Shown: positions 6,145 to 23,414, counted from the stretch's first letter. The stretch is DNA of 64,000 nt from Escherichia coli (GCA_025336725.1 GCA_025336725.1_3647.1), one strand, 5' to 3'. Notes: a model not told the origin generated them from the letters alone. Numbers and translations: made by a program.

Positions 6145-9100
6145 TTACCAGAACTGGCGTTGAGCGTTGCCTTTCACCCACACATCCATAAATTGGGGCG
6201 TGCCCGTTCTTGTTAATATACCAACCGTATTTATGGTACTTCCGTTGCCATCGTAGTTGTTTGACGAAATCTCCTGTGCAATCTTGGCTGAAGAGATCGT
6301 GCCATTTTCTATGAAGGCATCTTTCAAGAACGCTTGGTTGTTCTTGATTGCGAAAGCAAGGGTTGCTGTTCCGTTTCCAGGGTTATATACCGCAAAATTG
6401 TTTGCACTAACCATAAAGTAGGATTGAACTTGGCCCCCAGACCCTTCCATCCCCAACTGGATACCTGCAACATATTTATTCCCTGCGGAGTCCACCTGTA
6501 TTTTTGTGCCCCACTGAGCGTTTACTTTACCCTCTAAGTCGGTTACAGCCTTAGATGTTGTAGCTACTGCAGCCCTGATCTCGGACACATCTCCAACATC
6601 ATCAATGATCTCCTGCTTAGCAACAGCAAGTTCTTGACGAATAGCTGACGCTGTTCCGTTAATCAGGTCAACAGTGGCCTGATTAGTTTCAGAAATATTT
6701 GCAGACAAATCTTTCTTAGCTTGGGTAAGCTTATTATCCAACCCCGTAATATTGTTGGTGTTGGTTGTAATCTGCCCTTTAGCAGAGGTTAATTGTTCAG
6801 ATAAGGCTGCAGTTTTCTGATTCAGCAGGTCCGTTGTGGCCTTGTTGGTGGTAGAGATCAATGTATTGAGATCAGATTTAGTGGTGTTGATCTTGCCATC
6901 TAGAGTGGTGTAGTTTTTAGATACCGTGGCGTTAGTCTGGCTAATCTTCTGGTCAAGAGTCTGAGAAGTTCTATTCAGCAAATCCACAGTGGCCTGATTG
7001 GTGCTCAGAATGCTTGCATCCAGCTCAGATCTCTGAGTATTCAACTTACCTTCCAGGCTCTTATCTCCAGCCAGATATCCTTTTTCAACATCACCGATCT
7101 GCTCGGTTAGCTCACCTTGTGCAGCAACCAGTTTTTCATCCAACGCATCTGTTTTCTTGTTAAGAAGATCAGTGGTGGATTTGTTGGTTGTCTCAATCAA
7201 CGACGACAGTTTGGCACTCTCATTATTCAAGTTGTTGGTCAACTCACCTTTCGTTGCCGTCAGCTTATTGTCCAGTGCCTCGGTTTTCCGATTAAGGAGA
7301 TCTGTAGTCGTCTTATTGGTTGATACAATCAGAGAGTTCAGCTCAGAGCTTTCCTGTGCTAAAGCATCTTCCAACTCCCCCCTTGTTGAAACAATCTTCT
7401 CGTCCAAAGCTTCAGTTTTCTGATTTAGCAGATCGGTTGTAGCTTTGTTAGTGGTCTGGATTAGAGAAGTCAGCTTGCCACTTTCTTTAGAAAGATCATC
7501 TGCAAACTTGTTCTGAGTGGCTACCAGTTTCTGGTCTAGAGTGGTAAGCGTTCCATTAACGTCCTGGAAGTTGTCGTGGGTTTCTTGGATGAATATTCCA
7601 ACCCTATCCCCCAACTGAGCATACAGCTTGTCTACTCTAGAGAACTCACCTTCCATGTGGTCAAAAGCCTCGTCAACTCTACCATCCATGTACCTGTTAA
7701 GTTCTGTGACACGATTTTCAACCTCTTCAATAGAGGAATCCAAAGTGCTCATCAACTCTTTATAAGTTTCTGTCTTTTTGAATTCAGCATCTATCTGAGG
7801 CATCAAATCCTCGATAGAGGTGTAGCAGCGTGCAGCGCATTCTACAAACTGAGAGCTACCAAAAGCGTTTGTGGTTCGAATATACCAATAATAAACCTTA
7901 TCGTTCTGCAGGCCTTCAGATGTCCAAGTTGAACCAACACCCATACGGGTGGCGTTTGAAGTAACGGTTGCATCGCTGGTGTCGGGCAACCTTGTCATAC
8001 CAGATGTCCAAAAGTCATACTGGGTGCTTACACTTGCTAAATCCCTGCTGTGTGGAATCAAGGTGATAGCAAAGTATCCCTGCTTAACCTCTACAGAAAC
8101 AGGAGCTTCAGGTGCCTGAATGTTAAACTCGCAGTACGCTTCTGGAGATACACCACCTTTATAAGATGTTGCAACCACGGTTGCTGTGTATGATCCTTTG
8201 GTCAAGCCTTCTACTCGGACAAACTGCTCAACTGTCTGTGCTGTCCAAACAATCTCTCCGTTCTTTCTTACCTGCACAATATTTTGAGCGTAAGTTCCAA
8301 CGTTGTCCCAAGCCAAAACACCGTGAGTTACTTCCCCGGCTTGGAGAACGGAATACCTGAAGTTTTGCGGTTGAGCTACACCAGATGGAGATATCGGAAT
8401 ATCTACATTACCAGAGTCCGGAAGTTGTCCTGTGGCATCATTCCACTCTTTAGCATCTTGACGGAGTTTTACCTTGACACCACCCTTTTTAGTAAACTCC
8501 CATTCAAGAACCCTCATTTCTTGGCCCACTATACCAATACTTGGGAGGTTCATTGTAACGTAACGACCAGGTTTAAATTTAAAACCTCGCATATTGCAGG
8601 TGACTTCAATAATCCTGCCAGCTCTAGCGCGTCTTAAGAAGATTGCAGAAACACGCTGGGCTTGATAAGGGCTGGTAACAAAGCGATAGTCTATATCGAT
8701 TATCTTTCTTTCTCCATCCTTCTCTATCCACTCTGGGACAAACACTGATGGAAAATCTGTTTCAGAATATCCTTTGGTCGGGCTAGTGAATCTGCCAGTT
8801 ATTGTGTTGGATCTTTTGTCAAACGAGGCTTCCGGATAGATCTTAACCTCACCACAGACACAGTCCTCACTCAGTGTCATTGTTGCAGGGCCATAGTATG
8901 CACCAACCAGCAAACCATACTTACCAGCAACATAACTAAGATCTGCACCACAGGCTTTCAGCATTTCTGCCATAATACTTGCTGGGGCCTCATCCATGTC
9001 GAACTCACCGTTAATTGTGTAACGTCGCTCACTGGTTCCGTCAGCGTTTTTTACCGCCTCGTCGCATATGTTGGCAGCCTCCTTGAAGGACTCCCAGTTG

Positions 9101-9744
9101 ATGGTCTCGTCAGGACATTTAAGGTACGTTCTTAAATAGTCTAGGATCACCAAGGCAGCGTTATTGGTATACACCTCTTTACTGATACGAGGATCATAGC
9201 ATTTTTTACCAACCTTGACGAGTGTGACGTTTGGCAACCCAAAAGGAAACTTGTTAGGGTCAAACTTGAAGCTGGCACGTAGCCAACTGATCCCTCTACC
9301 TATCATGTCTGGTGACCAAGATGGGCAGTGTGTCCCCATGAAAGGATCAGCTGTTTTTCTGTCGTTATGTAGCTCCCACGATACCAAATCTCCATACGAG
9401 GAAATAGGATTACCATCGATAAGTATATCTTCTATACCTTCCAGAGGGTGATTGGCAAGAACAATAGCACAATGAAGAGTTTTGTCTCTATCCTGCTCCA
9501 AAAACGCAAGCAATCCGGATGTGCGTGTCTTACCATACACTACAGAGCAAGGTGCAGCAGAAGATCTGAGAAGCTTTTGTCTATCTTGCTGACTTCTGTA
9601 AGATTTGTTGCCCTCAAAAATCTTATCCAGAGTTCTGGTGGTAACAGTGTTCAGGCTGTCAGCCAGAGCTGCCTTGGATGCGTTCCAGTCATAACTTGAA
9701 GATCTTGCAGAAGCAACGATGTTATCAATCATTGCAATTGGCAT
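6145..9744 (-). CDS. large tail fibre / host-specificity protein (lambda gpJ-like C-terminal domain, coiled-coil repeats)
   Basis: 1199 aa; central ~40-aa repeats (xLxSLIxTTNKxTTDLLNxKTxALDxKL) predicted coiled coil; fibronectin-III-like segment; C-terminal YFMVSANNFAVYNPGNG...AFIENGTISSAKI as in gpJ-type fibres. The ORF is truncated by a frameshift at about 6145. Confidence 0.6.
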   Translation of the reverse strand: MPIAMIDNIVASARSSSYDWNASKAALADSLNTVTTRTLDKIFEGNKSYRSQQDRQKLLRSSAAPCSVVYGKTRTSGLLAFLEQDRDKTLHCAIVLANHPLEGIEDILIDGNPISSYGDLVSWELHNDRKTADPFMGTHCPSWSPDMIGRGISWLRASFKFDPNKFPFGLPNVTLVKVGKKCYDPRISKEVYTNNAALVILDYLRTYLKCPDETINWESFKEAANICDEAVKNADGTSERRYTINGEFDMDEAPASIMAEMLKACGADLSYVAGKYGLLVGAYYGPATMTLSEDCVCGEVKIYPEASFDKRSNTITGRFTSPTKGYSETDFPSVFVPEWIEKDGERKIIDIDYRFVTSPYQAQRVSAIFLRRARAGRIIEVTCNMRGFKFKPGRYVTMNLPSIGIVGQEMRVLEWEFTKKGGVKVKLRQDAKEWNDATGQLPDSGNVDIPISPSGVAQPQNFRYSVLQAGEVTHGVLAWDNVGTYAQNIVQVRKNGEIVWTAQTVEQFVRVEGLTKGSYTATVVATSYKGGVSPEAYCEFNIQAPEAPVSVEVKQGYFAITLIPHSRDLASVSTQYDFWTSGMTRLPDTSDATVTSNATRMGVGSTWTSEGLQNDKVYYWYIRTTNAFGSSQFVECAARCYTSIEDLMPQIDAEFKKTETYKELMSTLDSSIEEVENRVTELNRYMDGRVDEAFDHMEGEFSRVDKLYAQLGDRVGIFIQETHDNFQDVNGTLTTLDQKLVATQNKFADDLSKESGKLTSLIQTTNKATTDLLNQKTEALDEKIVSTRGELEDALAQESSELNSLIVSTNKTTTDLLNRKTEALDNKLTATKGELTNNLNNESAKLSSLIETTNKSTTDLLNKKTDALDEKLVAAQGELTEQIGDVEKGYLAGDKSLEGKLNTQRSELDASILSTNQATVDLLNRTSQTLDQKISQTNATVSKNYTTLDGKINTTKSDLNTLISTTNKATTDLLNQKTAALSEQLTSAKGQITTNTNNITGLDNKLTQAKKDLSANISETNQATVDLINGTASAIRQELAVAKQEIIDDVGDVSEIRAAVATTSKAVTDLEGKVNAQWGTKIQVDSAGNKYVAGIQLGMEGSGGQVQSYFMVSANNFAVYNPGNGTATLAFAIKNNQAFLKDAFIENGTISSAKIAQEISSNNYDGNGSTINTVGILTRTGTPQFMDVWVKGNAQRQFW

Positions 9745-10181
9745 TAATACCTCCAGACATCAACAACGATAGAATCTTTCATGTCGAACATAAAGACCCC
9801 TTTATCACCTTTCGCCCAAATCTGGTTGTTCCAGAACACACCAGCGGTGAGCCCGTTCAGACCTTCGAAAATAACAATATCTCCACGCTGAACCTGCTTA
9901 GGAGTGTCCAGTCGAGTCATAAAGAAATCAAAAATAGTAGGCAGGTGTGTAGTTTTGAAACGAAGCATGCACCATCTTTTGCTTTCCAACTCTGTTTTAT
10001 ACGTCCCTTCGAAGTTAGAAAGAAAATCTGTTCCGTATTGGGCATCAACACACTTAGCTGCAAAGGTGCAACAATCGTGGAATCCCCATTCAAAAGGTAT
10101 GGTGGCCTCCTCGTCAAACACTTTCCACAATCTTTCTTGCCAATCCACTAAACGAGGGTGTGTGCTCATTAAACCTCCCAA
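9744..10181 (-). CDS. tail-associated protein with Cys/His motif (possible NlpC/P60-like or assembly factor)
   Basis: 145 aa; FEWGFHDCCTF...QRGDIVIFEG motif; directly upstream of the large fibre gene and translationally coupled to it. Confidence 0.3.
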   Translation of the reverse strand: MGGLMSTHPRLVDWQERLWKVFDEEATIPFEWGFHDCCTFAAKCVDAQYGTDFLSNFEGTYKTELESKRWCMLRFKTTHLPTIFDFFMTRLDTPKQVQRGDIVIFEGLNGLTAGVFWNNQIWAKGDKGVFMFDMKDSIVVDVWRY

Positions 10182-10735
10182 ATGATCGGGCGGCTCGCCA
10201 CCTGATCCACATATTTAAAAAATCTGTCGTTATCGTTTCTTGAGCTGTGGCTTTCCTCCGTGTACCGATAAGGAAAACCTCTTAACCAGCTGTTGAAGAT
10301 GGAAGAGATGGATATGGACAAAGCGCTATTCTCTCCTGTCTGAATAGCCATATCTGTTATAAGGCCGTCAAACAAGCCATTAGTTGTGACAGGCAGACCA
10401 TTCTCCATAGCGGTAATGTACAACGTGGCACGACAACCAGAATACTCCGTCTTCAGCAGATCACCCACATACTTAGGATCAAACCCGTTTAATGTTGCTA
10501 CCACAGATCCGAAGTTGGTGGCATCTTTCTCAGACACAGCAGTTAATGTTGCTGATCCACCTATCCCTATAAAATGTTGCCCCTCAATTACTACAACACC
10601 AGTGCCTGAGCACACCCTAACAGTTCCTGTCGGTAGCTCCAGCTTTGCAGCAATTAAGATCTCAACACCATCAAGCTCCAGCTTTTCAAGAAATAAATTA
10701 TCTAATGGCGCTCTGATCATCTTAGAAATCCTCAA
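10169..10735 (-). CDS. hypothetical tail/baseplate-associated protein
   Basis: 188 aa ORF inside the tightly packed fibre cluster; no recognisable motif. Confidence 0.35.
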   Translation of the reverse strand: MRISKMIRAPLDNLFLEKLELDGVEILIAAKLELPTGTVRVCSGTGVVVIEGQHFIGIGGSATLTAVSEKDATNFGSVVATLNGFDPKYVGDLLKTEYSGCRATLYITAMENGLPVTTNGLFDGLITDMAIQTGENSALSISISSIFNSWLRGFPYRYTEESHSSRNDNDRFFKYVDQVASRPIIWEV

Positions 10736-11312
10736 AGAAGTTGATAACTATATTATCACCTTTTTGCATAGCATCGACTTTTTGCTTAATTTTATAAATA
10801 TCTCTGATATGAAACCTACCCTTCGGGGATTGAGTTATTATCTTCATAGTGTCCCCTGCGGCAATAGGTTTTCTAAGTCTTGGAGATATGCTTATAACAG
10901 CAGACCCAACACCATCGCTACGCACTGGAGCTGTTACCACTTTCAATTCATCATTGACAGATATTTTATCCCCAGCTCTGGCTATGTCTCTGTTTGGCTC
11001 CCACCCAACCGTCCTCAAAAAATCATCGTTACCAGTAGGCCCAAGGGCGATTGGCTCATTAGCTGTTACTGAGTGACCGTAAGTTTTAATAAGAAAGATG
11101 TTTCCATCTTTATACACCTGATCAACAAAGCTCTTAAGCTCTAGCAACTGTGACTCGCTGATATTGGAAACCGTCAAAGTGCCTTTCCAGTTAGGTGTGG
11201 CATAGGTTACTTTTTGCGTTTTACCTGTAAACGGACTTTTAAACGTAACAATATCTGCCAGTAGCTCCAATCTAATATCTGGAAGGTATCTAGGCCTTTC
11301 CCATAAAAACAT
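10722..11312 (-). CDS. hypothetical tail/baseplate-associated protein
   Basis: 196 aa ORF in the fibre cluster, overlapping its neighbour by 14 nt. Confidence 0.35.
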   Translation of the reverse strand: MFLWERPRYLPDIRLELLADIVTFKSPFTGKTQKVTYATPNWKGTLTVSNISESQLLELKSFVDQVYKDGNIFLIKTYGHSVTANEPIALGPTGNDDFLRTVGWEPNRDIARAGDKISVNDELKVVTAPVRSDGVGSAVISISPRLRKPIAAGDTMKIITQSPKGRFHIRDIYKIKQKVDAMQKGDNIVINFFEDF

Positions 11313-11369: not shown

Positions 11370-11404
11370 CAATACAAACAAAAAGCCCCCGCCGAAGCGA
11401 GGGC
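11370..11404 (-). terminator. rho-independent terminator
   Basis: Minus-strand hairpin GCCCUCGC-UUCG-GCGGGGGC followed by UUUUUGUUUGUAUU, immediately after the stop of the 1269-aa fibre gene. Confidence 0.7.
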
Positions 11405-11411
11405 AAAACAG

Positions 11412-14400
11412 TTACTTCAGTTTCTCTTGCAACCCAGTAACAACCTCTGTCAATTTTTTAACCTGCTCCTCAAGGGCGGTTATTTTATCATCCTGTTCCC
11501 TGCAAACCTGGACAAGCAAGCCTGTAACAGCTGCGTAGTCAACGTTATAGAACCTTTCCTCGGTCATCAGAGGAATACCGTCTTGAGTAGGACCTTCTAT
11601 TTCCTTCCTTTTCACGAAAGACCCTACTGCCTCTGGCAATGCTTCCATAACCTCTTGAGCAATCACGCCTGCATAAGGCATACCATTCTCTTTCAAGGTG
11701 TAGGTATAGCCTTTCATCTTTCTAATTGCTTCCAGAGCGTTAGGTATGACCTCTATATTATCCTTCAGGTCACGGTCAGAACTTTGACTAACAGTGGTGC
11801 ACTCTACCGTGCCGTTGACAGCAAAATATCTTGATTTAGCCTCATCTGCCTTAGCTCCACAGTGGAATACCCAGCTGGCGGCTGTTGAGTTATCACTTAT
11901 CTGAAGCTCCAGCACACTCTTCCTATCCGCGCCATTACCCCAATAGAATAATCTAGCATTATCAGCAGGTAGGTTACCGTTGTTGCTGGGATCTTCAGAA
12001 CCACCAACATGAATGCATAGCTCTTTATCTGTTTCATCAACATTTCGATTCGGGCGTAACTGGATAGCTTTACCAGAATCATGCCGCCAAACTTCCCACA
12101 TATAAGTGGAGCCAGTTCTATCCATGTTACCAACACGCGTGTATCTGTCACCAAAACGTGTGATGTACTCCTGTACGCATCCTTTCGGATTGTTTGCATT
12201 GTTCTGGTAAACAATCAGAGTACCAGCGTACGGTGCTGGGTAATGTCTTTCAGATGTCGAGTTGGCATCAAGATGTTGGTGATAGATGCCCTCACAAGTA
12301 CCATCGTAAGTGTTTAGGTCTGTAGATTCAAGACCTGCACCTCTGTGTGAGAAGATCTTGTTCCACGGTCTGTGAGCACCACCCTCAATAGATCTGGTAT
12401 ACAACCTATCAAGGCGACCAGCTATCTGGAAAGCATAATTCCCAGAAAATGCCACAGACAGACCGCCAACAACCATCGAACCTTCCGGCCCGTTGACATT
12501 GCCAGCCATTATCTTGGAGGGGTTTGTATTACCAAACTGATTGTTCCAGTCAGCACCTGTCTGGCAAACATAGCCTCCCGGAGGGAAAAATGTGCCGTCT
12601 TTGTTGAAATTGTAGAACTTATGAGCTGTACCTACAACATCGCGAACGATAACTTGACCAGCTTCCGGAGTAGATCTGAACTCTGCCTGGCCTTGCAGTC
12701 TTGCACCATTACCACATTTAGAGGTAAAGGTGTTGTTGATCAGATCCTCTGTTCCTTCCGATGCAGCCTGGAACCCTGCATTAGAGAACAGTGCTTTTCG
12801 AGTAGTCTGACTACCTGGGCAGATGTAGTTAAGACCGTTGCACCATAACTCTGTCAGGCCAAACTCTGTTTTATTGGACAGGAAATATCTGTCAGAAGAC
12901 CCACGATACATCCACTGATTGGTGTAGAAACCTGTTACACCATTAAATTCAGCCAGAGGTCGAGTGTTTGTTACATTGTCACCTTTGATTGCTAGATTCA
13001 AGTCAGCAGATGCTAGAGGTGCACAGAATTTAACACCGTCTTGGTTGTTTGTTACATTGCCAACCTGCCAGTCTTCCTCTCTTGTTGACACCTCTATTAC
13101 GTCAGCGCTGGCATACACTGTTACAGGGAAGGCACGTGCCTCCACATAGAACGCAACATACTCTTGTTTACCCCTTGTTGGAGCAACGCACCCAAGTATC
13201 GCCTTCTCATTCTGGTAGAAATTTATCGACCCGGTAAAGAAGTCACCACGATCAGTCCAGCCACCAGTTCTGTAGTGGCACTGCAGTGTAGCACAGTTCA
13301 TAGGATCGTTGCCAGAAGAAGATCTGGTAACGATGGTTAAATCTGTCCCGATTGTTGGCGCATGGTTAGGATCGGTTCTGACAATAATCGGATAATACTT
13401 GCCATCCTGCATCGCTGCAGTTCTAGGCAGGTTTATATATGGTCTGACACCTGCTGCAAGAGGGATTCTGAATTGTGCCTGGGCATCTCCCACAGTCCTA
13501 GCACTGGTGCCACCGCAACCTATCGGCAAAGGTTCCCATTTAGCCTTGCGGTTGTTATAAACACCCCATTCCAGAGTACCATTACCGGATTCATCCATCC
13601 CTCCATCCCAGATTACCATTTTTGCGGCTTTCTTGGATCCCCAGAACCCTCTTTCTGCTCCTGAACTACGGATCCATTCTCCAAGACCCCAGTTTGTCAG
13701 CTGACCAGTAAGATCCCCAACCTGCATGTATTTAGGGCAGTCTAACACGCCATCTTCGCGGAAACCTAAATATCTATGAGTTTCAGATCCTTTTGCGCCT
13801 TTGTGCAGGTGGAGTGTCAACCAAGCCTTATTGTCGTTTCTTACCTCAGAGTAGATCCTATACCCATGCTCAAGGACACCGTCAGCGCTGTATTTGTCCC
13901 CGTTAACAATACCTGATGCTGACTTAACATCTCCAGAGTATTGAGCTAAGTAAAGGTGCCCGAAGGCTGGTGAGTTGTTTTTACCAAGGCCGATATGAGA
14001 TCTGAAGGTATCATCGTTACGAGGTCTGACCATCGGCTGCCATGCAGTCCACTGATTTGTGTTGGCCTGATAGGTTCTCAAATACCAAACATCTACGTTA
14101 GAGAATGGATAGTATTCCTGACGACAACCTGTACCGCCGTTAGCGTTGTTCTGCCAAACAATCAAGTGACCAGCACCAGAACCTGCAGGGTAACCATTTG
14201 CCTCAGTTGCATAAGCAGTCATCGGCTGGTAGTATATACCATCCTGATTACCAGTCAAGTTATTGATATTGAAATTTGGCTCAAGGGCTGCACGTTGCTT
14301 ATAGAAAGCACCGATATTGGTACGGATTCCAGCGGCATCTCTAGCCCCTGTGCCGCCCTGCTCTATAGCAAGAGGCTGCCAAGAAGCTGTTTGTTGGTTC

Positions 14401-15221
14401 CACATACCCCAACGGCCTGTTGCATCAAGCTGCAAGTACCCTGCCGTGTTTAAATCATCTCCAGCACGGATAACTGTTCTTGTTGGGTTGTTTGCCTCCA
14501 GGCGTTTAAATTCGTCACGAAGTGCTATTCTTTTTGTTGTTGCTACACCGTTGGTTACTGCAATGGTATACATGGCTCCAGAGGTAGCGCCACGGAAAAT
14601 GCCATCAACAGTTGTAGTATCACGACGAGATACCACACCGTTCAGAAATTTTTCACCAGCCGCTTCAGAAGGGTAATTAGTAGTTCTTCCCTCTTCAATA
14701 ACTGCAGGACCAACAAAGTTGACAAGGTGAATAACATCGCCTACAGTATGCACTGTGCCAAAATCTACCCGCTGTGCAAGTGCTTTAGCATCGTTGGCTG
14801 TCTGAACAGTAACATCCATTACATCCTGGACAGACTGCCCTTCGGCTGTCATGATCATAGATGCGCCAATGGTAGACTCCAGCTCCTCCCTTAAGGACGG
14901 ATCTGTATATACCATCCACGCAGCGTCAGTAATCCCACCGTCAGAATATGGTGAAGACAGTGCAGGGACAGTGTGTGGAAATTCGCCTTTCCAACGCAGG
15001 TATAGATCTTCCTCTTCGAAGTAGGCAAAATCCATTGGGCCGTTTAACTTACCACCTTCCTTAAAGGAGATTACATGAGAAACAGTCCCATCCACATGGA
15101 CAACATCGCCAATTTTTACACGACGGGTCAGGTCTGGTTGTTGAACAACCAGGTAATCATCCTCTGTCACTGCGGTAGTGGCAGGAAGAGATTCAATTCT
15201 GACAACTTTAATATCAGCCAT
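11412..15221 (-). CDS. tail fibre/tailspike with C-terminal intramolecular chaperone (peptidase S74-type) domain
   Basis: 1269 aa; N-terminal anchor region similar to the 17856-18524 product; IEQGGTGARDAAGIR fibre motif; C-terminus ...SSDRDLKDNIEVIPNALEAIRKMKGYTYTLKENG...ITALEEQVKKL matches the auto-cleaving chaperone domain of endosialidase-type fibres. RBS AGGAGAAAGA before ATG. Confidence 0.7.
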   Translation of the reverse strand: MADIKVVRIESLPATTAVTEDDYLVVQQPDLTRRVKIGDVVHVDGTVSHVISFKEGGKLNGPMDFAYFEEEDLYLRWKGEFPHTVPALSSPYSDGGITDAAWMVYTDPSLREELESTIGASMIMTAEGQSVQDVMDVTVQTANDAKALAQRVDFGTVHTVGDVIHLVNFVGPAVIEEGRTTNYPSEAAGEKFLNGVVSRRDTTTVDGIFRGATSGAMYTIAVTNGVATTKRIALRDEFKRLEANNPTRTVIRAGDDLNTAGYLQLDATGRWGMWNQQTASWQPLAIEQGGTGARDAAGIRTNIGAFYKQRAALEPNFNINNLTGNQDGIYYQPMTAYATEANGYPAGSGAGHLIVWQNNANGGTGCRQEYYPFSNVDVWYLRTYQANTNQWTAWQPMVRPRNDDTFRSHIGLGKNNSPAFGHLYLAQYSGDVKSASGIVNGDKYSADGVLEHGYRIYSEVRNDNKAWLTLHLHKGAKGSETHRYLGFREDGVLDCPKYMQVGDLTGQLTNWGLGEWIRSSGAERGFWGSKKAAKMVIWDGGMDESGNGTLEWGVYNNRKAKWEPLPIGCGGTSARTVGDAQAQFRIPLAAGVRPYINLPRTAAMQDGKYYPIIVRTDPNHAPTIGTDLTIVTRSSSGNDPMNCATLQCHYRTGGWTDRGDFFTGSINFYQNEKAILGCVAPTRGKQEYVAFYVEARAFPVTVYASADVIEVSTREEDWQVGNVTNNQDGVKFCAPLASADLNLAIKGDNVTNTRPLAEFNGVTGFYTNQWMYRGSSDRYFLSNKTEFGLTELWCNGLNYICPGSQTTRKALFSNAGFQAASEGTEDLINNTFTSKCGNGARLQGQAEFRSTPEAGQVIVRDVVGTAHKFYNFNKDGTFFPPGGYVCQTGADWNNQFGNTNPSKIMAGNVNGPEGSMVVGGLSVAFSGNYAFQIAGRLDRLYTRSIEGGAHRPWNKIFSHRGAGLESTDLNTYDGTCEGIYHQHLDANSTSERHYPAPYAGTLIVYQNNANNPKGCVQEYITRFGDRYTRVGNMDRTGSTYMWEVWRHDSGKAIQLRPNRNVDETDKELCIHVGGSEDPSNNGNLPADNARLFYWGNGADRKSVLELQISDNSTAASWVFHCGAKADEAKSRYFAVNGTVECTTVSQSSDRDLKDNIEVIPNALEAIRKMKGYTYTLKENGMPYAGVIAQEVMEALPEAVGSFVKRKEIEGPTQDGIPLMTEERFYNVDYAAVTGLLVQVCREQDDKITALEEQVKKLTEVVTGLQEKLK

Positions 15222-15236
15222 TCTTTCTCCTGAAAG

Positions 15237-15253
15237 GGGGCAAACAGCCCCCT
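15237..15253 (-). terminator. intercistronic hairpin (attenuator or weak terminator)
   Basis: GGGGGC-N5-GCCCCC hairpin between the tailspike stop and the next fibre gene's RBS; weak U-tract (UUUC). Confidence 0.35.
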
Positions 15254-15256
15254 ATG

Positions 15257-17854
15257 TTAAAGGTACAATCCACGGTATTGAGCATAAAGTCCCAGACCGC
15301 GAAGGATTTCGCCAGAGTGATAGCCTACCGGATCAGAAACTGCCCAGCAGCCGTTTAAAACATTATCCCCGTTAATGAAGTGGTGCTTTTGCAGTAACTT
15401 CACACAGGCTTCTACAACAATATCTATTTGGGGTATTGTCTCTGAATACCCGCACAGACCTAGCCAGCAGCAACCTGCAAGCCATTCACCAACCACCCAC
15501 ATCCTGTCTCCTCTGTCTTGATAAGAATATCCCCCAGAGGTGTTAAAGTCTGTAGGCAGATTTCCTGAATGAGATGACTGGAATCTGTTGAGGAACCATG
15601 CCCATTTCTGGCAGAACAGGAATAGTCTTTCATCAACAGGTTCTTTATGTTTCTTGAGCTCATATATTGTTCGGCACGCAGCAACAAAAGATCTTGACTG
15701 GAGTTTAGAGTTATCTACCATCTCCCACCAACCAGTCAATCCTTCATTACCTCTCTGCCATACATAACGTGAGGCAACTGGACCCTCTGTCTTAAATGTA
15801 TTATTATACCAGACTTGAGCGTCATACAGAAAGCCTATTGTATTTGACAATCTATGGCGATCTATGTTTTCTGCACCCATGCAGTAGACTGCTGGGTATT
15901 GCATACCAGGGTATGGCCAATTTGGCTTTTCCTCTAAGAGATAGTTTTCCTTATCTATCACCTTTCCGGCAGGGAACACACCCGGTGTGTGCCTGTATGC
16001 ACCTTGCTTGTAGTTTCTGACATAGCAATCACCAACCTTAGCGGTTGATTCTGTCTTGCTTGCCATCCACACGCTAAACCATATTAGATAAGCATCCCTA
16101 TCTGCAATATAGAACTGCGGCAGCGTGTTTACGCAGTACAGATCAAACAAGCCATTACCTATCTGCCTGTCGCTTAGACTGAAATCTACAGAGGTGAGCC
16201 CTTTAGGATTAGCAAAGAAAGGTTTAATCTCTTCTTCGGTGTGATGAGGTTGTGTCGGATCTAGTTTGAAATCTCCTAGAGTAAGAGTTTCTGTTATCCA
16301 TTGTCCATTAGTGGCATATAGATCAGCATACCATAACCACCTATCTTTGTCAAGAAATTTGACCCTTACCATCTCATCATCTGACCGATAAGTTACTGAA
16401 TTTAAAGAAATCTCTCTCCCAAAATTGAAAGTTACTTTACCTCTTGCTATATTACAACGGGTGAAGTTGTCAGAGTGGTTGTAAATGTCGGTATCATACT
16501 GCATACTAACACTAGCGCCACCGCTTACGACAATGTTTTCCTCTTTAGGTAAGAGATACGGATTACCGTCTTTACCAACTACCTCTACGAAATCAGTGAC
16601 CTTGGCAACTGTCTCTGTTACCTCTGACCCTCCAAAAGGGACCCCTATCCTATACTGTTTTTTGTTATTGTTGCCATCATTAAGGATGAAATGTGGCTGG
16701 AACAGAACTCCTTCTCCTCCGAAATTCATAACAATTTCAGCATCTCTGCCGATCTTGTATGTGGTCCCTTTTTGGATTATTTCACAAGGCTGGCGTGCGT
16801 TCATTCTAAAATTGATATACCCGTCGCTGTCCCTACTCATGACAGGAACTGTTCCTGCAACGAGACAGGCTCCATCTGTGAACGGTGCCTTAATCAACGT
16901 GGTCTTTCTAAACAACTTGTCGTAGGCATTTATATCACTGAAATTAAGCAACTTGTTGTAAGACTGTTTAAACGCGGTGTAATACTTTTCCTCACCTGTC
17001 AAGGTGTAGAGTTGATAACAAGCGTCGCACCACATTTCTTCCCCGTCCAACTCTGGGGCTTGATTATCTGCAACCACATTTATAGGATTTACAATTACAG
17101 GGGATCCAGCAGGTATCACCGATCCACCCTGCTCTTGTGGCAATCTCACACAGTAGGTTACCTTGTGGCTGCCTGTAACACCCTTATCCTGCAGTTGGAT
17201 TGTGCCGAACTCTGCAGACGTATGACCACTATCGGCTATGCTACCGTTGGCCCAATAGCGGTTACCGTCCCATGCTATATACCACTCAACCCACCAACTT
17301 AATCCAGATGTTGTCCAATTTGGGTTAGCATCTGTGCCGCCGTAAACATCAGAGTCTACAGTGTTTCTTCCTAACACACCGTTATACGCTTGGAATGCCT
17401 TGTCCAGGTATTCCCCCCATGTTGGAGATCCAGCTGGGATTTTTCCTCTACCGTTGGTAAAAGACACCACCACATCTTTAAACCCACCGTGTGATGGGAC
17501 CCCATCTGTGGATAGAGGGTAGTGGGACAATCTTTGCATTTTACTTTCTACGGCATATGCACCCAGAAGATGACTATTGTACGCTTCCCAAGCATCTTTT
17601 GCCCTATCCAGATAGAAATAGCTTTTCGATGCCCTGTATGCTTCAATGTATCCCAGAATCAACACAGCTTGGGACTCATGCATTGCCCAATCATTATTTA
17701 TCTTACTCCCTGACCAACCTGACGCTATAAGTCCATCTTGGTTTACCAGCTTGTTCTGCGTAGGAAGATTGGTAATACCTGTGTTGTTATCGAGGCACTT
17801 CCTGTGCCCCTCAATCATCTGGAATACGTTATCAATGTTGTGTTGAATACGCAT
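15257..17854 (-). CDS. tailspike-like receptor-binding protein with probable enzymatic domain
   Basis: 865 aa, Trp/Tyr/Gly-rich; translationally coupled (GGAG in the upstream gene's end) to the anchor-like gene; catalytic domain type not assignable by eye. Confidence 0.4.
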   Translation of the reverse strand: MRIQHNIDNVFQMIEGHRKCLDNNTGITNLPTQNKLVNQDGLIASGWSGSKINNDWAMHESQAVLILGYIEAYRASKSYFYLDRAKDAWEAYNSHLLGAYAVESKMQRLSHYPLSTDGVPSHGGFKDVVVSFTNGRGKIPAGSPTWGEYLDKAFQAYNGVLGRNTVDSDVYGGTDANPNWTTSGLSWWVEWYIAWDGNRYWANGSIADSGHTSAEFGTIQLQDKGVTGSHKVTYCVRLPQEQGGSVIPAGSPVIVNPINVVADNQAPELDGEEMWCDACYQLYTLTGEEKYYTAFKQSYNKLLNFSDINAYDKLFRKTTLIKAPFTDGACLVAGTVPVMSRDSDGYINFRMNARQPCEIIQKGTTYKIGRDAEIVMNFGGEGVLFQPHFILNDGNNNKKQYRIGVPFGGSEVTETVAKVTDFVEVVGKDGNPYLLPKEENIVVSGGASVSMQYDTDIYNHSDNFTRCNIARGKVTFNFGREISLNSVTYRSDDEMVRVKFLDKDRWLWYADLYATNGQWITETLTLGDFKLDPTQPHHTEEEIKPFFANPKGLTSVDFSLSDRQIGNGLFDLYCVNTLPQFYIADRDAYLIWFSVWMASKTESTAKVGDCYVRNYKQGAYRHTPGVFPAGKVIDKENYLLEEKPNWPYPGMQYPAVYCMGAENIDRHRLSNTIGFLYDAQVWYNNTFKTEGPVASRYVWQRGNEGLTGWWEMVDNSKLQSRSFVAACRTIYELKKHKEPVDERLFLFCQKWAWFLNRFQSSHSGNLPTDFNTSGGYSYQDRGDRMWVVGEWLAGCCWLGLCGYSETIPQIDIVVEACVKLLQKHHFINGDNVLNGCWAVSDPVGYHSGEILRGLGLYAQYRGLYL

Positions 17855-17855
17855 C

Positions 17856-18524
17856 TTAGATAGCTCCTGCGATAATCAGTGCTCCGTACCAAGTTAACCC
17901 GTTGTCGTAGGTTTCCAACTTGAAAATGTCTGTTGCACCAGCTGTAAATGTCAGGATAGGATCTCTTCCGTATGCCCATTTAACATTATCAGGCCAATAG
18001 ACTTTGTTACCGCCAGAGGTCTGAGTAATGCATACGGTTATAGTTCTCGCCACACCTTCAAGACCTTCTGTTTGATTTTCAAAAGAGATTGTGGTGTTTG
18101 AAGTTAGTCGAACTTTAAAAGTGTCAGCAACTTCAAGATCCATATCAAGCTGACCACCAATAGATCCGTAATCAACTATTCTGCCAGAAGAAGTTGCAGC
18201 AAGCTCACCAAAAACAGACCAGGCTTTTGCAGACACACCCCCAGCACCCTCTACAGTGGAGTCTGGGAGGATTATTTTAGGATAATCCCCGTTCCACGTG
18301 TAGTAGCGCTTAGTTTCTGGGTCATAAGCAAAGTCCTTCTTGCTCTTAAGATAACCACCCTCTGTGAAATAGACTATCTTAGTAATGCTAAGATCGTTGA
18401 CAACATCGTCAATCTTAGCCTTTCTTGTCCCATCAGTCTGGTTGACAACCAAGAAGTCATCACTCAGGACTGTTTCTGCATCTTCAAGATCTGGAATTGG
18501 TATTGTAGGATAAGCTACAGCCAT
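17856..18524 (-). CDS. fibre/spike N-terminal anchor-like (adaptor) protein
   Basis: 222 aa; residues ~20-60 (LVVNQTDGTRKAKIDDVVNDLS...FTEGGYLKSKKDFAY) parallel the N-terminus of the 1269-aa fibre (LVVQQPDLTRRVKIGDVVHVDG...FKEGGKLNGPMDFAY). Confidence 0.5.
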   Translation of the reverse strand: MAVAYPTIPIPDLEDAETVLSDDFLVVNQTDGTRKAKIDDVVNDLSITKIVYFTEGGYLKSKKDFAYDPETKRYYTWNGDYPKIILPDSTVEGAGGVSAKAWSVFGELAATSSGRIVDYGSIGGQLDMDLEVADTFKVRLTSNTTISFENQTEGLEGVARTITVCITQTSGGNKVYWPDNVKWAYGRDPILTFTAGATDIFKLETYDNGLTWYGALIIAGAI

Positions 18525-18533
18525 GATTTCTCC

Positions 18534-19118
18534 TTAGTTAACATCAATAGCACGACCAGACTGGTTGGCAATAGCCTCATCATTGGAGGTAGCAATAACA
18601 CCAGAGTATTCGCGCTCATCTGGAGCAAGCGTCCAGGTATTGCGGTTAATGGTTTGTTCTGCCTCAGTCATCAGCAGATCTTTATCCTGAGTCAACAGAG
18701 AGCCTACAGGGATCGGGTTTTCCATCTCAGGACCAGCATACTGGTTCCACCATGTGGCATCTCCGGTTCTAGGCAATCTGAAGTTGATCAGGTAGTACAG
18801 TTTATTAGCCCACTTAATCCAACCCTCATCATCACAGAGAGAGGTTGTCCCAGAATCAGGCTGTGGGTAGGTGAACTGATCAAGACCTACGAAAGCCAGC
18901 CTTACAATCTCGTTCTCTTTGGTAACAACCTCAAAGAACGCTTGGTATGTTCTAGATCTTCGATCCATGGTAGACTGGAAGTTTATGATGTTTAGCACAT
19001 CCGGCTCTTGTCTTGCCACTTCCATAATCTTGTTATCAAGAACAGTCTTCATGACCTTCTTGCTGAGAAAGTCCATATAAGGGAGCAAACAGCTCGTCAG
19101 CAGCCAGCTCCCTTCCAC
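18534..19118 (-). CDS. hypothetical baseplate-associated protein
   Basis: 194 aa ORF between the spike gene and the fibre cluster; true start may be an internal Met. Confidence 0.35.
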   Translation of the reverse strand: MEGSWLLTSCLLPYMDFLSKKVMKTVLDNKIMEVARQEPDVLNIINFQSTMDRRSRTYQAFFEVVTKENEIVRLAFVGLDQFTYPQPDSGTTSLCDDEGWIKWANKLYYLINFRLPRTGDATWWNQYAGPEMENPIPVGSLLTQDKDLLMTEAEQTINRNTWTLAPDEREYSGVIATSNDEAIANQSGRAIDVN

Positions 19119-19258
19119 GTATTAAACCTCATCCACAAGCGCTGGCGCAGACTTACCTGGTTTGAATCTATCAACTCAAGACCTTTGTCTATCGCCAAAT
19201 CGCCTGTCTGCGGGTCCATCAATATGTCACTATAAAGCGTAGCCATGAAAGCCCTCTA

Positions 19259-19936
19259 TTAGTGCGGTCCACTTGTCTCGCCATCAGGGCAAGAGTGGGT
19301 ATGACCTTTATATTCTGCATAGAATGAATCCAAATCCACACCTGCAGCAGTTATAATTCTACCAGACGGGTCTATTGTGGCACCATTCATTCTGATATTT
19401 CCATCCACAGCAGCTCGCAAATTGGCAGCCCCGTTAGTAAAAGAGAACTCCCCGCTGCTGTCGCACCGTAGTGTCCCACCAGGTGTTTGAAGCTCAAAAT
19501 CTCCAGAAGGTGTCAGTTTAAAATAAACCCTATCATTCCATAACTCTACGTTATCAGGATCGATCTGTAAAGCGTTTGAGTCTGAATGAACAGAGGTTAT
19601 TGCCCACCCAGGAAACAGACCGTGAGTTTGTTGATCGTCGTTATTGTTTTCATTTCTCTCTGAAAACTGCAATCCTACAACATCTCCAGCCTTAATAGGG
19701 AGTGTTAACCTTGCCTTTCCGCTGTTTGCAGACATCACCTGAATTGGAACATCATAGATAAGGGGATACCTCTCTACATCCCCGTCATCAAACATGGTTT
19801 CGGCTATTGGTTGCACGGCTGCAGAGGGGATACTATAATCTACACTGACAACTCTGGCCCTAATACTGGTGTGGTAGTCCCTCATTATTTTTTCTATAAA
19901 GGATCTTACAGCAGCATCTTTCCTGTTTATTGCCAT
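19259..19936 (-). CDS. baseplate central spike protein (P2 gpV / Mu gp45 / T4 gp5-like)
   Basis: 225 aa; N-terminal OB-fold-like segment (DVPIQVMSANSGKARLTLPIKAGDVVGLQF); C-terminal His/Cys motif YKGHTHSCPDGETSGPH consistent with a metal-binding spike apex. Confidence 0.5.
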   Translation of the reverse strand: MAINRKDAAVRSFIEKIMRDYHTSIRARVVSVDYSIPSAAVQPIAETMFDDGDVERYPLIYDVPIQVMSANSGKARLTLPIKAGDVVGLQFSERNENNNDDQQTHGLFPGWAITSVHSDSNALQIDPDNVELWNDRVYFKLTPSGDFELQTPGGTLRCDSSGEFSFTNGAANLRAAVDGNIRMNGATIDPSGRIITAAGVDLDSFYAEYKGHTHSCPDGETSGPH

Positions 19937-20940
19937 TATACCTCCTCAGTTTTGTCAACAACTCCACCCACTGCTTCTCCAAGTCCAAGCTCTGTAATGT
20001 AATCACCACCTTCGATGGTGCCTTTGTGGTGCACCGTGATCACCTTGTAGAAGCCTGTGTATTGTCTACTCTTAAGATAGATGGTGGACTCTGGAAGGAT
20101 AGCCCCGTTAAGGCATGTGGTCACGGTAAGACCAACGTCCTCTTTCGGGTTTTTCTTTTTCTTTTTAGATGTTGAACCGCCTTTTGCAGCAGCTTTAGCT
20201 TTTCGTTTTCTAGCAGGCTCTGGGTTTTTAGGGGTGGGCGATCCATGCATCCCAGACTCTACACTGATTTCAAATACAGAGTCCTTGAACCTTTTTCCAA
20301 CTTTGGTCCAATACAAAGCCCCGTCCTGAACGCTAAATGTTGAGTTGGTCAGTCTTGCAAACCTGCGGAGGTTCTCTGCAGTGTTTCCAGAGAAAGCCAT
20401 AGAGTATTGCAAAGTCTGGTTTCCAAAACCCACAACCCTACCTTTTGGCAAGTTCATATCCTTCAGTAGGTCATTAAGCACAGAGTTCAGAGGTGTGCCT
20501 TTCTGATAAGATCTTGTGCTTTGGCACTTAATGATGTTCTCAGTACCATCCCCAAAGATGAACTTAGTTTTTCTGGTAGGACCTTCCCATCTGTCTTCAA
20601 CAAACTCCACAGTTCCGGAGAATATCAACTGGTTCTCATTATCATAGCCAGCCTCAAACATCACTGCAAGAGCATCAGCTTGGTGCATGTCCAGATAGTT
20701 AACCGTATCGTCAGACAGGTTGTAAACTATCACATAGCCTTTGTTTGGCTCTTTGGTATTGTCCTTTTGTATGTCAAACTCTATATTGGCAGCACCTGTG
20801 TCTGAGCTAACCTCATAAACGCCAGAATCACTTTCTCCTTTCTTTTCAACAGATTTTGGGATATTGGTTTTTGATTTTCCGCCATGTTCTACAGGGCGAC
20901 CAAACAATAATCGCCATGTTCTACGTCTATACTCTGCCAT
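19936..20940 (-). CDS. hypothetical baseplate protein
   Basis: 334 aa; contains a Lys-rich low-complexity patch (KRKAKAAAKGGSTSKKKKKNPKED); position within the baseplate module. Confidence 0.35.
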   Translation of the reverse strand: MAEYRRRTWRLLFGRPVEHGGKSKTNIPKSVEKKGESDSGVYEVSSDTGAANIEFDIQKDNTKEPNKGYVIVYNLSDDTVNYLDMHQADALAVMFEAGYDNENQLIFSGTVEFVEDRWEGPTRKTKFIFGDGTENIIKCQSTRSYQKGTPLNSVLNDLLKDMNLPKGRVVGFGNQTLQYSMAFSGNTAENLRRFARLTNSTFSVQDGALYWTKVGKRFKDSVFEISVESGMHGSPTPKNPEPARKRKAKAAAKGGSTSKKKKKNPKEDVGLTVTTCLNGAILPESTIYLKSRQYTGFYKVITVHHKGTIEGGDYITELGLGEAVGGVVDKTEEV

Positions 20941-21320
20941 TATGCTAACCCTTGCTGTTCCTTGTAAAGATCAACTGGGGTGCCGTATACAAGTTGTAGC
21001 TCAGATCTGGCCCCAAGGTTGTATCTTCCAACCCTGCCCCAATATTGATCGTCTTTAAACGACAGAGCCATCAGCCTACCCTTCGGTAAATCGTCTCTGT
21101 AATGCAGCCCGTCTAAAATGTCTTGACAAGCTGTTACTTTTCTGGTTACTAAAGGACTGTCGCCTACTGGACCAAGGGATAACCACCAGGACTCATCCCT
21201 CTCGTTCCATTGCATACGCATTTCATAGGTTTCATTATCTAAAACCACACGCATGGTCTGATCAGGAAAGCCGTCAATGTCCCACACAAAGGTGATTATG
21301 CACCAATCTTTAAGCTCCAT
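20940..21320 (-). CDS. small baseplate protein (possibly gpW/gp25-like)
   Basis: 126 aa; size and position next to the spike gene only. Confidence 0.3.
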   Translation of the reverse strand: MELKDWCIITFVWDIDGFPDQTMRVVLDNETYEMRMQWNERDESWWLSLGPVGDSPLVTRKVTACQDILDGLHYRDDLPKGRLMALSFKDDQYWGRVGRYNLGARSELQLVYGTPVDLYKEQQGLA

Positions 21321-21332
21321 TACACGCTCCCC

Positions 21333-21878
21333 TTATTTTCCGTTAACTTTGTTGTAGTTCCCCTGCTCAGATGGGACTATGGTGGAAGGTCTTCCATATT
21401 CCTGATAATACCAATCTGCAGCCGATTGGGTAACACCGTTTTCATCTGTCCACATCATGGATTTGTATGGCTGCCACTCTTCTGCAGCATTTGTGGACGC
21501 GGTGTCTGCAAATGCCCCTGTGTCTCTCTTGTTACCTACGTTACTACCATTCTTGCAATCGTTGACAGCCCCTTTTTGCTGGGTCTTGCCGACCTTCTTG
21601 GGGTTGCTGTATACAGTTGCATTAACAACCTTGTTCAAGTAGAATGTGCGGAATTCTGTAAGTTCCACATCAAACACCATTGCAGCACCCTCACCAACAG
21701 ACTTGTTGGCAGAAAGACTGGTTATAATGTAGTTTTCAAGGAGTCTCTCTTCAGTAACTAAAGAAACCAACTGCCGCTTATTAATGATCTCGTCAAAGTT
21801 TCCAGTGCAGCGCCGCAAGTCGCATAGACGCTGCAGGGTTTTTAGAGTCAGTATTCCTGTCAATGTAGTTTTGCTCAT
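21333..21878 (-). CDS. hypothetical structural protein
   Basis: 181 aa ORF; its first 86 nt overlap the upstream ORF in another frame, so either the start is downstream or the two form one frameshifted gene. Confidence 0.35.
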   Translation of the reverse strand: MSKTTLTGILTLKTLQRLCDLRRCTGNFDEIINKRQLVSLVTEERLLENYIITSLSANKSVGEGAAMVFDVELTEFRTFYLNKVVNATVYSNPKKVGKTQQKGAVNDCKNGSNVGNKRDTGAFADTASTNAAEEWQPYKSMMWTDENGVTQSAADWYYQEYGRPSTIVPSEQGNYNKVNGK

Positions 21879-22218
21879 AGATTATATGTGGTGATGTATT
21901 TACCCTACCAGTAAAAGAAAATACACCATCTTTAATTACAGCGTGGTCTGACAGGGTAGATTTATCTTCCACCGCAAACCCAGTCTTATCAACAGAATGT
22001 TTGAAAGAATAGTTCTCAACCTGGTCGAAGATAATGGCAAGATCGTTAGTAAAGTTTTTACCCTTCATCTCCGTATTGCGACCACCATAGTTAAGACCGC
22101 TGACAAACATAGTATACTTTACATCGCTTTCAGTTTGCTGCTCTGCCTTTTCAGCCTTTGGAGATTTAACCTCTTGAGGCTTGTACAGGTCTTTTTCATC
22201 AACTATATTGCTTGGCAT
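21793..22218 (-). CDS. hypothetical structural protein
   Basis: 141 aa ORF; overlaps the following ORF by 86 nt in a different frame. Confidence 0.35.
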   Translation of the reverse strand: MPSNIVDEKDLYKPQEVKSPKAEKAEQQTESDVKYTMFVSGLNYGGRNTEMKGKNFTNDLAIIFDQVENYSFKHSVDKTGFAVEDKSTLSDHAVIKDGVFSFTGRVNTSPHIIYEQNYIDRNTDSKNPAASMRLAALHWKL

Positions 22219-22282
22219 AACCTCTCCAGGACACTCCTATACCATCTAGATATTGTATCATAAACAGCTACGTTTTTACAAC

Positions 22283-22312
22283 ACCGATAAAATAAAGGGG
22301 GCCGGAGCCCCC
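22283..22312 (-). terminator. rho-independent terminator
   Basis: Minus-strand hairpin GGGGGC-UCCG-GCCCCC followed by UUUAUUUUAUCGG; separates the tape-measure region from the baseplate genes. Confidence 0.7.
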
Positions 22313-22637
22313 TGCACAGTTTATTACCAAAGGTCGGTAGACATGAAGTTGATATCTTTATTGTTCTCCCACTCAAGTTTTGCATCAAATATTTTGTTAA
22401 ACTCGCCCTCATCTATTGAAATCGTGATTTTCCCATCACTGATCTCTAAAGGTAGCATTTCCATAGTTCTTAATTGAGAAGCAAAACCGAGGCCACCCCG
22501 GCAACGGAAAATCCCGCCCCATTAAGGTGTCCAAAGGATTAACAAACCCGTTACCTCAAATGAAAGTATCTTTGCGAATCATATCGCTGATAGCATCCAG
22601 CTGCTGATTTCTTTCACTTAGTGGGTTGTAACGGTCA

Positions 22638-23099
22638 TTAAATAATTCCGGCGCTTAGTATTATACCGATAATGCCCAGCTTACCGAGCAGACCAACTTT
22701 GCCACCAGGTGTCTTGAGGCCACCCCCACCTTTTCCTGCCGGAGCTCCACCACCAGATCCTTCTGTAGTAGCGGCACCAGCTGCTGCTGCTGCTCCAGCT
22801 GCACCCCTTAGAGAGTTAAGGAATTTAAAGGTTTTTACAAGCATGGATGCCATGACAAAACCTTTTGTTAGGGCGTTGACTACCAGCATGATGGCAGCAG
22901 CAAACCCTGCCCATTTAGCATAGCTAAAGGTGTCATGAAGCTCTTCAGAATATTCCTTCGTCTTAGCTGTTATGAATCCCCATTTAATCCCCCATTCAAG
23001 GAAAAACATGCGGATCTTGACTATAGTGTTGTTTAGTTCACCAACTACCCAGTTAAGGCCTCTCACAAACCCGCTAACAAAATCACCAGAGGCATCCAC
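22638..23099 (-). CDS. probable C-terminal fragment of the tape measure protein (hydrophobic, Gly-rich)
   Basis: 153 aa; hydrophobic segments plus GAAGAAAAAGAATTEGSGGGAPAGKGGGG...GIIGIILSAGII, as at tape-measure C-termini; lies downstream of the 415-aa helical ORF in another frame. Confidence 0.35.
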   Translation of the reverse strand: MDASGDFVSGFVRGLNWVVGELNNTIVKIRMFFLEWGIKWGFITAKTKEYSEELHDTFSYAKWAGFAAAIMLVVNALTKGFVMASMLVKTFKFLNSLRGAAGAAAAAGAATTEGSGGGAPAGKGGGGLKTPGGKVGLLGKLGIIGIILSAGII

Positions 23100-23161
23100 A
23101 CAAATTACGGGGAGTCTCGCCAGTGCGAATCAGTGTATAATGAACTCTGTTAATTCATCGC

Positions 23162-23371: not shown

Positions 23372-23414
23372 AAGCCTCTTTGGTGGCTTTGATAAAGGTT
23401 ATGCGGGCAATGCT

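Follow-up and report, generated by a model that had tools for sequence, protein, structure and literature searches.

Pairing of gp43, a proposed small adaptor, with the large protein gp42 in the tail-fibre operon of an rV5-like phage

How does a large adsorption protein that carries no recognisable anchor of its own become attached to a phage particle? This question is raised by three adjacent genes at positions 11,412 to 18,524 of a stretch of 64,000 nucleotides from Escherichia coli (GCA_025336725.1, sequence GCA_025336725.1_3647.1; the whole 64-kb stretch is referred to below as the window). Megablast of this region, together with synteny, identifies the window as Vequintavirus (rV5-like myophage) sequence, and the three genes as the gp43-gp42-gp41 operon of such a phage, whose tail-fibre genes have already been described. 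The multi-fibre apparatus, its chaperone and the host-dependent use of its fibres are also already published, so that as a discovery the locus, which is the published rV5-type multi-fibre adsorption apparatus, carries little weight. What we would add to the literature is modest: an explicit pairing of gp43 with gp42, and comparative support for gp43 acting as an adaptor. On the basis of sequence comparison we assign a probability of about 0.6 to the reading that the operon encodes one of several alternative adsorption devices mounted on the baseplate, in which gp43 would be the adaptor that docks gp42.

Association of gp43 and gp42 across phages

Loci in which the pairing could be examined were gathered from gp42 homologues at 23-35% identity, from phage loci retrieved by tblastn with gp43, and from the contig of a long protein containing the gp43 C-terminal domain (C-domain). 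In 12 out of 12 loci, the gene directly upstream of the gp42 homologue ends in the gp43 C-domain (profile E-values of 1e-20 to 1e-43). These loci belong to phages of the Vequintavirus, Phapecoctavirus, Justusliebigvirus, Seoulvirus, Rosemountvirus and Kolesnikvirus groups and to two metagenomic phage contigs, and also include two prophages, one of Burkholderia and the other within a 5.5-Mb chromosome, as well as a 48-kb contig whose gp42 homologue is named by its source for Vibrio parahaemolyticus. The upstream proteins are 153, 157, 207, 210, 222, 244, 317, 473 or 560 amino acids (aa) long and have unrelated N-terminal parts, one of the proteins containing a SPRY domain. An earlier, preliminary description of this DNA had called gp43 translationally coupled to gp42; at their junction a single base separates the TAA stop of gp43 from the ATG of gp42, with an AGGAG upstream. 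In homologous pairs the spacer ranges from -1 to +12 nt, and five pairs overlap as TAATG. In the phage collection, gp42 matches 525 records and gp43 537, with near-identical breakdowns by organism name.

Two further observations concern these pairs. About 20 records named "Campylobacter phage" (MG065661.1, MG065662.1, MG065650.1 and others) carry gp42 and gp43 that are either at least 98% identical to the E. coli Vequintavirus versions or Phapecoctavirus-like, and look like mislabelled coliphages. The 48-kb contig also encodes, at L016:849-1490, an SU10-type head-to-tail adaptor, a podovirus-associated family, so that the occurrence of the pair may extend beyond myoviruses.

The gp43 protein itself is made of two domains, as seen in its AlphaFold2 (AF2) model (mean predicted local distance difference test score, pLDDT, of 85), with a low-confidence linker at aa 108-111. 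That its N-terminus is paralogous to that of the gp41 fibre, as the preliminary description proposed, is borne out by pairwise alignment, in which gp43 and aa 7-105 of gp41 share 38% identity over 99 aa (BLASTP E-value 3e-18), and by a Pfam match to Tail_spike_N (PF18668) in both proteins, each scoring 40.5 bits where the cut-off is 25. The fold of this module is common to gp41, gp43 and the N-terminal domains of CBA120 TSP1/3/4 and G7C gp63.1. Searching the ORFs (open reading frames) of the 64-kb window with a hidden Markov model (HMM) of the module revealed no third copy besides those in gp41 and gp43. In two other lineages too, the adaptor-like protein and a fibre of the same genome have paralogous N-termini (loci L003, E-value 3e-8, and L004, E-value 6e-15).

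The diversity of the C-domain was taken from an exhaustive HMMER search, a word-indexed search having given 4 close matches only. The domain is present in 3284 cluster representatives, nearly always at the extreme C-terminus. We infer that the match of gp43 to a fragment of TSP4 comes from this domain, since the fragment lacks Tail_spike_N. The label "sialidase domain protein" that gp43 orthologues bear in BASEL most likely goes back to a single Asp-box-like motif, and we do not count it in favour of a sialidase activity. A Foldseek similarity of gp43 to a baseplate chain of phiTE (probability 0.77 over 62 columns) was likewise set aside as too weak, the phiTE paper having no matching component.

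As for gp42, it had been taken for a tailspike, a view that we could not sustain. The protein has no match by sequence in Pfam (including the pectate-lyase and tailspike families), NCBIfam or the PDB, and none of the four proteins searched against NCBIfam, gp42 among them, gave a match there. Its AF2 model, built from 11 sequences (mean pLDDT 75.6), contains no beta-helix; rather, about 11 long helices lie in three blocks (aa 59-95, 269-305 and 654-860), with beta-rich, beta-sandwich insertions at aa 125-236 and 329-613. A right-handed parallel beta-helix tailspike was rejected on these grounds and because Foldseek returned no tailspike (template modelling, TM, scores of at most 0.14). We also discounted partial Foldseek matches to Cry/Vip3 toxins, GH101 enzymes and cupins, which have low TM scores and were read as generic beta-sandwich similarity. 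A match to glucuronyl C5-epimerase reached a Foldseek probability of 0.97, also with a low TM score, and the gp42 family profile weakly matched single (alpha/alpha)6 hairpins of cellobiose 2-epimerase and GH76 proteins in the PDB (E-values of 0.003-0.18). In the model, gp42 consists of helical hairpins, which probably form an (alpha/alpha)6 toroid, and of beta-sandwich domains. A GH8 glycosidase domain is added at the C-terminus of one distant homologue, which suggests a glycan-related context. In PHROG, gp42 falls into family 2871, "tail protein".

Neither Pfam nor the module HMM detected Tail_spike_N or another anchor module in gp42. A cargo without an anchor of its own that is genetically linked to an adaptor is what characterises the adaptors of branched receptor-binding proteins (RBPs), exemplified by the XD domains of CBA120 TSP2/TSP4 and by T4 gp10/gp9-like docking domains, and both features are found here. 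At Kolesnikvirus-type loci (L004:6772-7140 and L010:5024-5446), an internal gp42 domain of about 120-140 aa (aa ~440-579) is also present in a fibre of 502 aa whose gene directly precedes that of the adaptor, which points to the cargo and this adjacent fibre having shuffled domains.

The adaptor reading and its alternatives

According to the reading we prefer, gp43 would be a small stand-alone adaptor that is held in the baseplate or the fibre network by its N-terminal module, occupying a site of the kind used by gp41, and that carries gp42 on its C-domain. The latter would probably be a glycan-binding or glycan-modifying protein made of six hairpins with beta-sandwich domains, and the tight stop/start junction would keep the two proteins co-expressed. 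The preliminary description envisaged a modular adaptor system serving several spikes. Modularity finds strong, if indirect, support, in that the C-domain/gp42 pair is invariant in all 12 loci while the N-terminal part is swapped; the plurality of spikes does not, as the evidence ties gp43 to a single cargo, gp42.

Published data speak to the device as a whole. Mass spectrometry of rV5 virions revealed all three proteins, gp41, gp42 and gp43 (Kropinski et al. 2013, PMC3606486), and the same paper already pointed out that the C-terminus of gp41 is like that of the K1F endosialidase and that the N-terminus of gp43 is like that of tailspikes. Vequintavirinae possess three sets of lateral fibres (Maffei et al. 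2021, PMC8594841). In Bas54, a relative with ~91% identity in which gp43, gp42 and gp41 correspond to bas54_0025, bas54_0026 and bas54_0027, transposon insertions have been counted (HIDEN-SEQ preprint, 10.1101/2025.11.20.689424). In the reference library, the fraction of TA sites hit was 0.15 for gp43, 0.50 for gp42 and 0.65 for gp41, and the mean counts in liquid competition on E. coli K-12 were 0.0, 3.1 and 0.2, respectively, versus 17.8, 52.1 and 16.6 on the uropathogenic strain CFE311. For gp40 to gp37, where 0.80-0.96 of the TA sites were hit, the pattern is inverted, with mean counts of 38-86 on K-12 and 0-0.6 on CFE311. Thus, in Bas54 gp41-43 matter on K-12 and are dispensable on CFE311, where gp37-gp40 are required instead, and these counts show gp41-43 behaving as one host-specific unit that is not needed to build infectious particles. 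This agrees with the switchable host range predicted from the sequence in the preliminary description.

One may also consider an explanation in which gp43 is not an adaptor at all but a short receptor-binding fibre, whose C-terminal knob binds a conserved host glycan; gp42 would then attach independently, and the adjacency of the two genes would reflect co-function on the same receptor pathway. The C-domain does occupy the extreme C-terminus, the place of distal tips, its Asp-box motif is of the kind found in glycan-binding sialidase folds, gp43 is "essential" on K-12 while gp42 is not, and GenBank records label gp43 a tail fibre. Nevertheless, gp43 is 98.6-100% identical to the proteins of the rV5 group, whereas true receptor-binding parts of Vequintaviruses (the distal part of gp41, and gp37) vary, and gp42 shows no anchor of its own that we can recognise. 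Moreover, adjacency and overlapping stop/start codons have been kept across distances of 25-35% identity and across exchanges of the N-terminal part, and such persistence would be difficult to account for if gp43 and gp42 were not physical partners. We therefore regard a receptor-binding gp43 as unlikely.

A second alternative keeps the partnership and reverses its sense, gp42 being an assembly factor or chaperone-like partner that folds or trimerises gp43-type knobs rather than a displayed cargo. Obligate adjacency and a tight junction are indeed typical of fibre/chaperone pairs too, but chaperones are normally small and encoded downstream of long fibres, while gp42 is four times the size of gp43. 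It is also present in purified rV5 virions (PMC3606486), its helices are reminiscent of the (alpha/alpha)6 barrels seen in enzymes that act on carbohydrates, and one homologue has the appended GH8 domain mentioned above, all of which makes this alternative very improbable. Finally, the notion that gp43 and gp42 are halves of one spike gene recently split by mutation, the adaptor being an accident of this lineage, draws on the single base between the two ORFs and on the catalytic body that normally follows the gp43-type N-module in CBA120 and G7C tailspikes, but is effectively refuted on comparative grounds, since the split arrangement is found in 12 of 12 loci in unrelated phage groups and is thus ancient, no fused form was found in the domain representatives and gp42 clusters that were searched, and the gp43 C-domain is complete and confidently modelled.

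Several points weigh against gp43 being the adaptor of gp42. A fused gp43-gp42 protein was seen neither in the 150 best representatives of the domain nor in the 10 clusters of gp42. At L012:1730-4745 a 772-aa C-domain protein is followed not by gp42 but by an RCC1-like repeat protein (cut by the contig end); the C-domain would therefore be a general C-terminal platform, of which the gp42-type protein is one obligate client. Profile searches with the C-domain gave no significant PDB or Pfam match. The confidence of the gp42 model is moderate (at the pLDDT given above), with no catalytic site identified in it. In the 2026 cryo-electron microscopy (cryo-EM) study of phi92, fibre II was left unassigned and an AlphaFold3 model of gp140 could not be fitted into the unassigned fibre density, the equivalence of gp140 with gp43 resting on the name "Phi92_gp140" given to the gp43-like gene in the annotation of SPFM17. 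Lastly, the Bas54 reference library calls gp43 "essential" and both gp42 and gp41 "intermediate" (10.1101/2025.11.20.689424), and since the three genes form one operon, insertion polarity can explain the whole gradient, so that adaptor and cargo are not separable by these data. We accordingly do not treat the gradient gp43 > gp42 > gp41 as demonstrating an adaptor hierarchy.

Going one step further, we tentatively suggest, with rather less confidence than we place in the adaptor role itself, that the gp43-type C-domain and the gp42-type protein may constitute a portable two-gene adaptor-cargo cassette. This cassette, which has neither a Pfam family nor a solved structure, would comprise more than 3000 domain clusters, with the pair in about 525 phages; it may have moved between virions by exchange of the adaptor N-terminal part, and may form unassigned baseplate density in rV5-like and phi92-like phages. 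Which gene encodes which fibre is called unclear in both the BASEL (Maffei et al.) and the phi92 papers. The pairing bears on this matter, as it provides a concrete, testable fibre assignment consisting of a small adaptor and a large non-fibrous protein. It also suggests a handle for engineering, since the cargo could perhaps be transferred from one phage chassis to another by giving the adaptor a different N-terminal part.

The gp41 fibre, operon signals and the surrounding genes

The third gene of the operon encodes the long fibre gp41, for which the preliminary description had predicted an S74-type chaperone with a conserved serine. Indeed, Pfam places Peptidase_S74 (PF13884) at aa 1148-1199, with an E-value of 7.6e-15 and 55.4 bits against a cut-off of 22. 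As read from the translation, the motif SDRDLKDNI begins at Ser1148 and has a lysine at +5 (S1148-D-R-D-L-K1153). This arrangement matches that of the K1F endosialidase endoNF, with cleavage at Ser911 and Lys916 five residues on. In its sequence the domain bears the hallmarks of a trimerisation chaperone that cleaves itself, with Ser1148 as the expected site. The rV5 gp41 had been matched to the K1F endosialidase structure 3GW6 (PMC3606486). In the RBPseg study (2025, PMC12143355), three fibres were observed at the baseplates of Bas49 and Bas54, and the S74 domain of the one that is of the S74 class had no density, which is consistent with its release. Further towards the N-terminus, aa ~745-1128 form the zone of allelic variation expected for a receptor-binding part, in line with the report that the three largest fibre genes show such variation (PMC8594841).

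The coordinates of the operon and its elements are given in Table 1. The gp43-gp42-gp41 transcription unit ends at the terminator (read from 11404 to 11385), which has a folding energy of -16.9 kcal/mol (z = -4.1) that none of 200 shuffled sequences equalled. Between gp42 and gp41, the hairpin (centroid -15.1 kcal/mol, z = -2.4) might set the ratio of gp42 to gp41, by acting either as a partial terminator or as an element of RNA stability.

Table 1. Features of the gp43-gp42-gp41 operon, in window coordinates
Feature	Position	Strand	Remarks
gp41 homologue, long tail fibre, 1269 aa	11412..15221	-	Intact ORF; corresponds to rV5 gp41
gp42 homologue, proposed cargo, 865 aa	15257..17854	-	Intact ORF; corresponds to rV5 gp42 (tail protein)
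gp43 homologue, proposed adaptor, 222 aa	17856..18524	-	Intact ORF; corresponds to rV5 gp43 (tail fibre protein)
gp43 stop/gp42 start junction, TAA-g-ATG, 1-nt spacer	17855..17858	-	AGGAG upstream
gp43 N-terminal module, aa 1-107: anchor peptide of ~45 aa plus Tail_spike_N	18204..18524	-	Paralogous to gp41 aa 7-105
gp43 C-terminal beta-sandwich domain, aa ~116-222, proposed gp42 docking platform	17859..18179	-	Asp-box-like T-x-D-x-G-x-T-W
gp41 N-terminal module, aa 1-105	14907..15221	-	Paralogous to gp43 N-terminus
gp41 distal part, aa ~745-1128, divergent from rV5	11838..12988	-	BLASTN gaps; 82% identity to rV5
gp41 Peptidase_S74/intramolecular chaperone domain, aa 1148-1269	11415..11780	-	PF13884; includes C-terminal heptad-like helix
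Stable hairpin between gp42 stop and gp41 ribosome-binding site	15236..15252	-	GGGGGC-TGTTT-GCCCCC, then TTTCA
Intrinsic terminator directly after gp41 stop	11385..11404	-	8-bp stem with 7 GC pairs; T-run

The assignment of the locus is based on 124 phage records matched by the megablast query (11412-18524), 99 of which cover at least 80% of it at 80-95% identity. Almost all of them are Escherichia Vequintaviruses, e.g. Murica, rV5 and the BASEL isolates. Query coverage is 100% for Murica, JEP1 and others (89-91% nucleotide identity) and 92% for rV5 (91.9% identity). Overall nucleotide identity to the Murica, rV5 and BASEL Vequintaviruses is 89-93% with full synteny, and collinearity of the window with annotated stretches of rV5 and EduardKellenberger extends across 24 kb or more; DNA homology together with the same gene order and sizes makes this a Vequintavirus gp41-gp43 locus. 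Upstream of the operon are genes for the baseplate hub, the spike and gp44, and downstream lies a siphovirus-like tip module (gp40-gp37), followed by wedge genes and short tail fibres. This module, at 5592-11312, is a siphovirus-type tail tip inside a myovirus baseplate locus, with a distal-tail-protein-like gene, PY54-like tail proteins and a J-like protein that has Phage_Tail_Tip and Ig_J domains. The gene at 1226-3298 is a homologue of rV5 gp34, with the TIM-barrel and N-terminal domains of the Pfam "non-contractile tail sheath protein" and a Calx-beta domain; this fibre was proposed in the BASEL paper to be the deacetylase targeting the enterobacterial common antigen, and it scores as essential in Bas54.

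The preliminary description counted at least five large receptor-binding-type genes in this part of the window. A multi-RBP adsorption locus it is, and the three gp41-43 ORFs are intact, but two of the remaining genes were misdescribed. Instead of a single ORF at 5592-9744, the window has one at 6145-9744 (1199 aa) and a separate fragment at 5592-5846, owing to frame-shifting indels (net +1) relative to rV5 gp37, and 171-956 is only part of a homologue of rV5 gp33 that is itself frame-broken in the window. Clusters of small indels relative to rV5 and EduardKellenberger, at 959-1045, 5841-6240, 19085-19110 and 21792-23466, break conserved structural ORFs, namely those of the gp33 short tail fibre, the gp37 J-like fibre, the gp44 baseplate protein, the tube initiator and the tape measure. 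The breaks point to sequence errors or an unusually divergent genome; that a viable phage would have every one of them is improbable. In the 4.7 kb from 18900 to 23600, the best phage record reaches at most 94.8% identity. Near 44 kb the GC skew turns from negative to positive, consistent with the structural module being transcribed in one direction and the remainder of the genome in the other.

Comparison with known systems

The closest counterparts are gp41-43 of rV5 (PMC3606486) and their orthologues in Bas54, which are the same genes in the same order, with a gp42 of 865 aa and a gp43 of 222 aa; the rV5 gp41, in contrast, has 1272 aa and a different distal allele. The phi92-like phages (Justusliebigvirus; Schwarzer 2012; PMC13450770) possess an adsorption apparatus described as a "nanosized Swiss army knife", which includes a pair of the gp140/gp141 type. 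In EmilieFrey, a phi92-like phage that stands in here for phi92, a small C-domain protein is likewise followed by a gp42 homologue (35% identity), within the baseplate module and beside further fibres. However, the phi92-type adaptor has 157 aa and lacks Tail_spike_N, the S74-chaperone fibre of phi92 is an endosialidase (gp143), and phi92 has no siphovirus-like module of the gp37-40 type.

The chaperone of gp41 resembles that of the K1F endosialidase in matching the family above its curated threshold, in the Ser...Lys motif and in its position at the extreme C-terminus, followed by a helical, coiled-coil-like tail. It differs in sitting on a non-sialidase fibre shaft; cleavage of gp41 is a prediction. 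In the branched tailspike complexes of CBA120 (TSP1-4) and G7C (gp63.1/gp66), docking is the task of domains at the N-terminal end of large beta-helix tailspikes with enzymatic activity, whereas the rV5-type adaptor is a stand-alone protein of 222 aa with a C-terminal platform, and its cargo is not a beta-helix. No sequence-level homology between the docking domain and its CBA120 or G7C counterparts was detected when the C-domain profile was searched against the PDB and Pfam.

A stand-alone adaptor is also found in the podophages SP6, K1-5 and K1E, where the small, non-enzymatic gp37 links interchangeable spikes to the tail. In the context of a podovirus tail this is an analogy to gp43 only; the phi92 paper likens its own L-shaped fibre I to the SP6-type adaptor arrangement.

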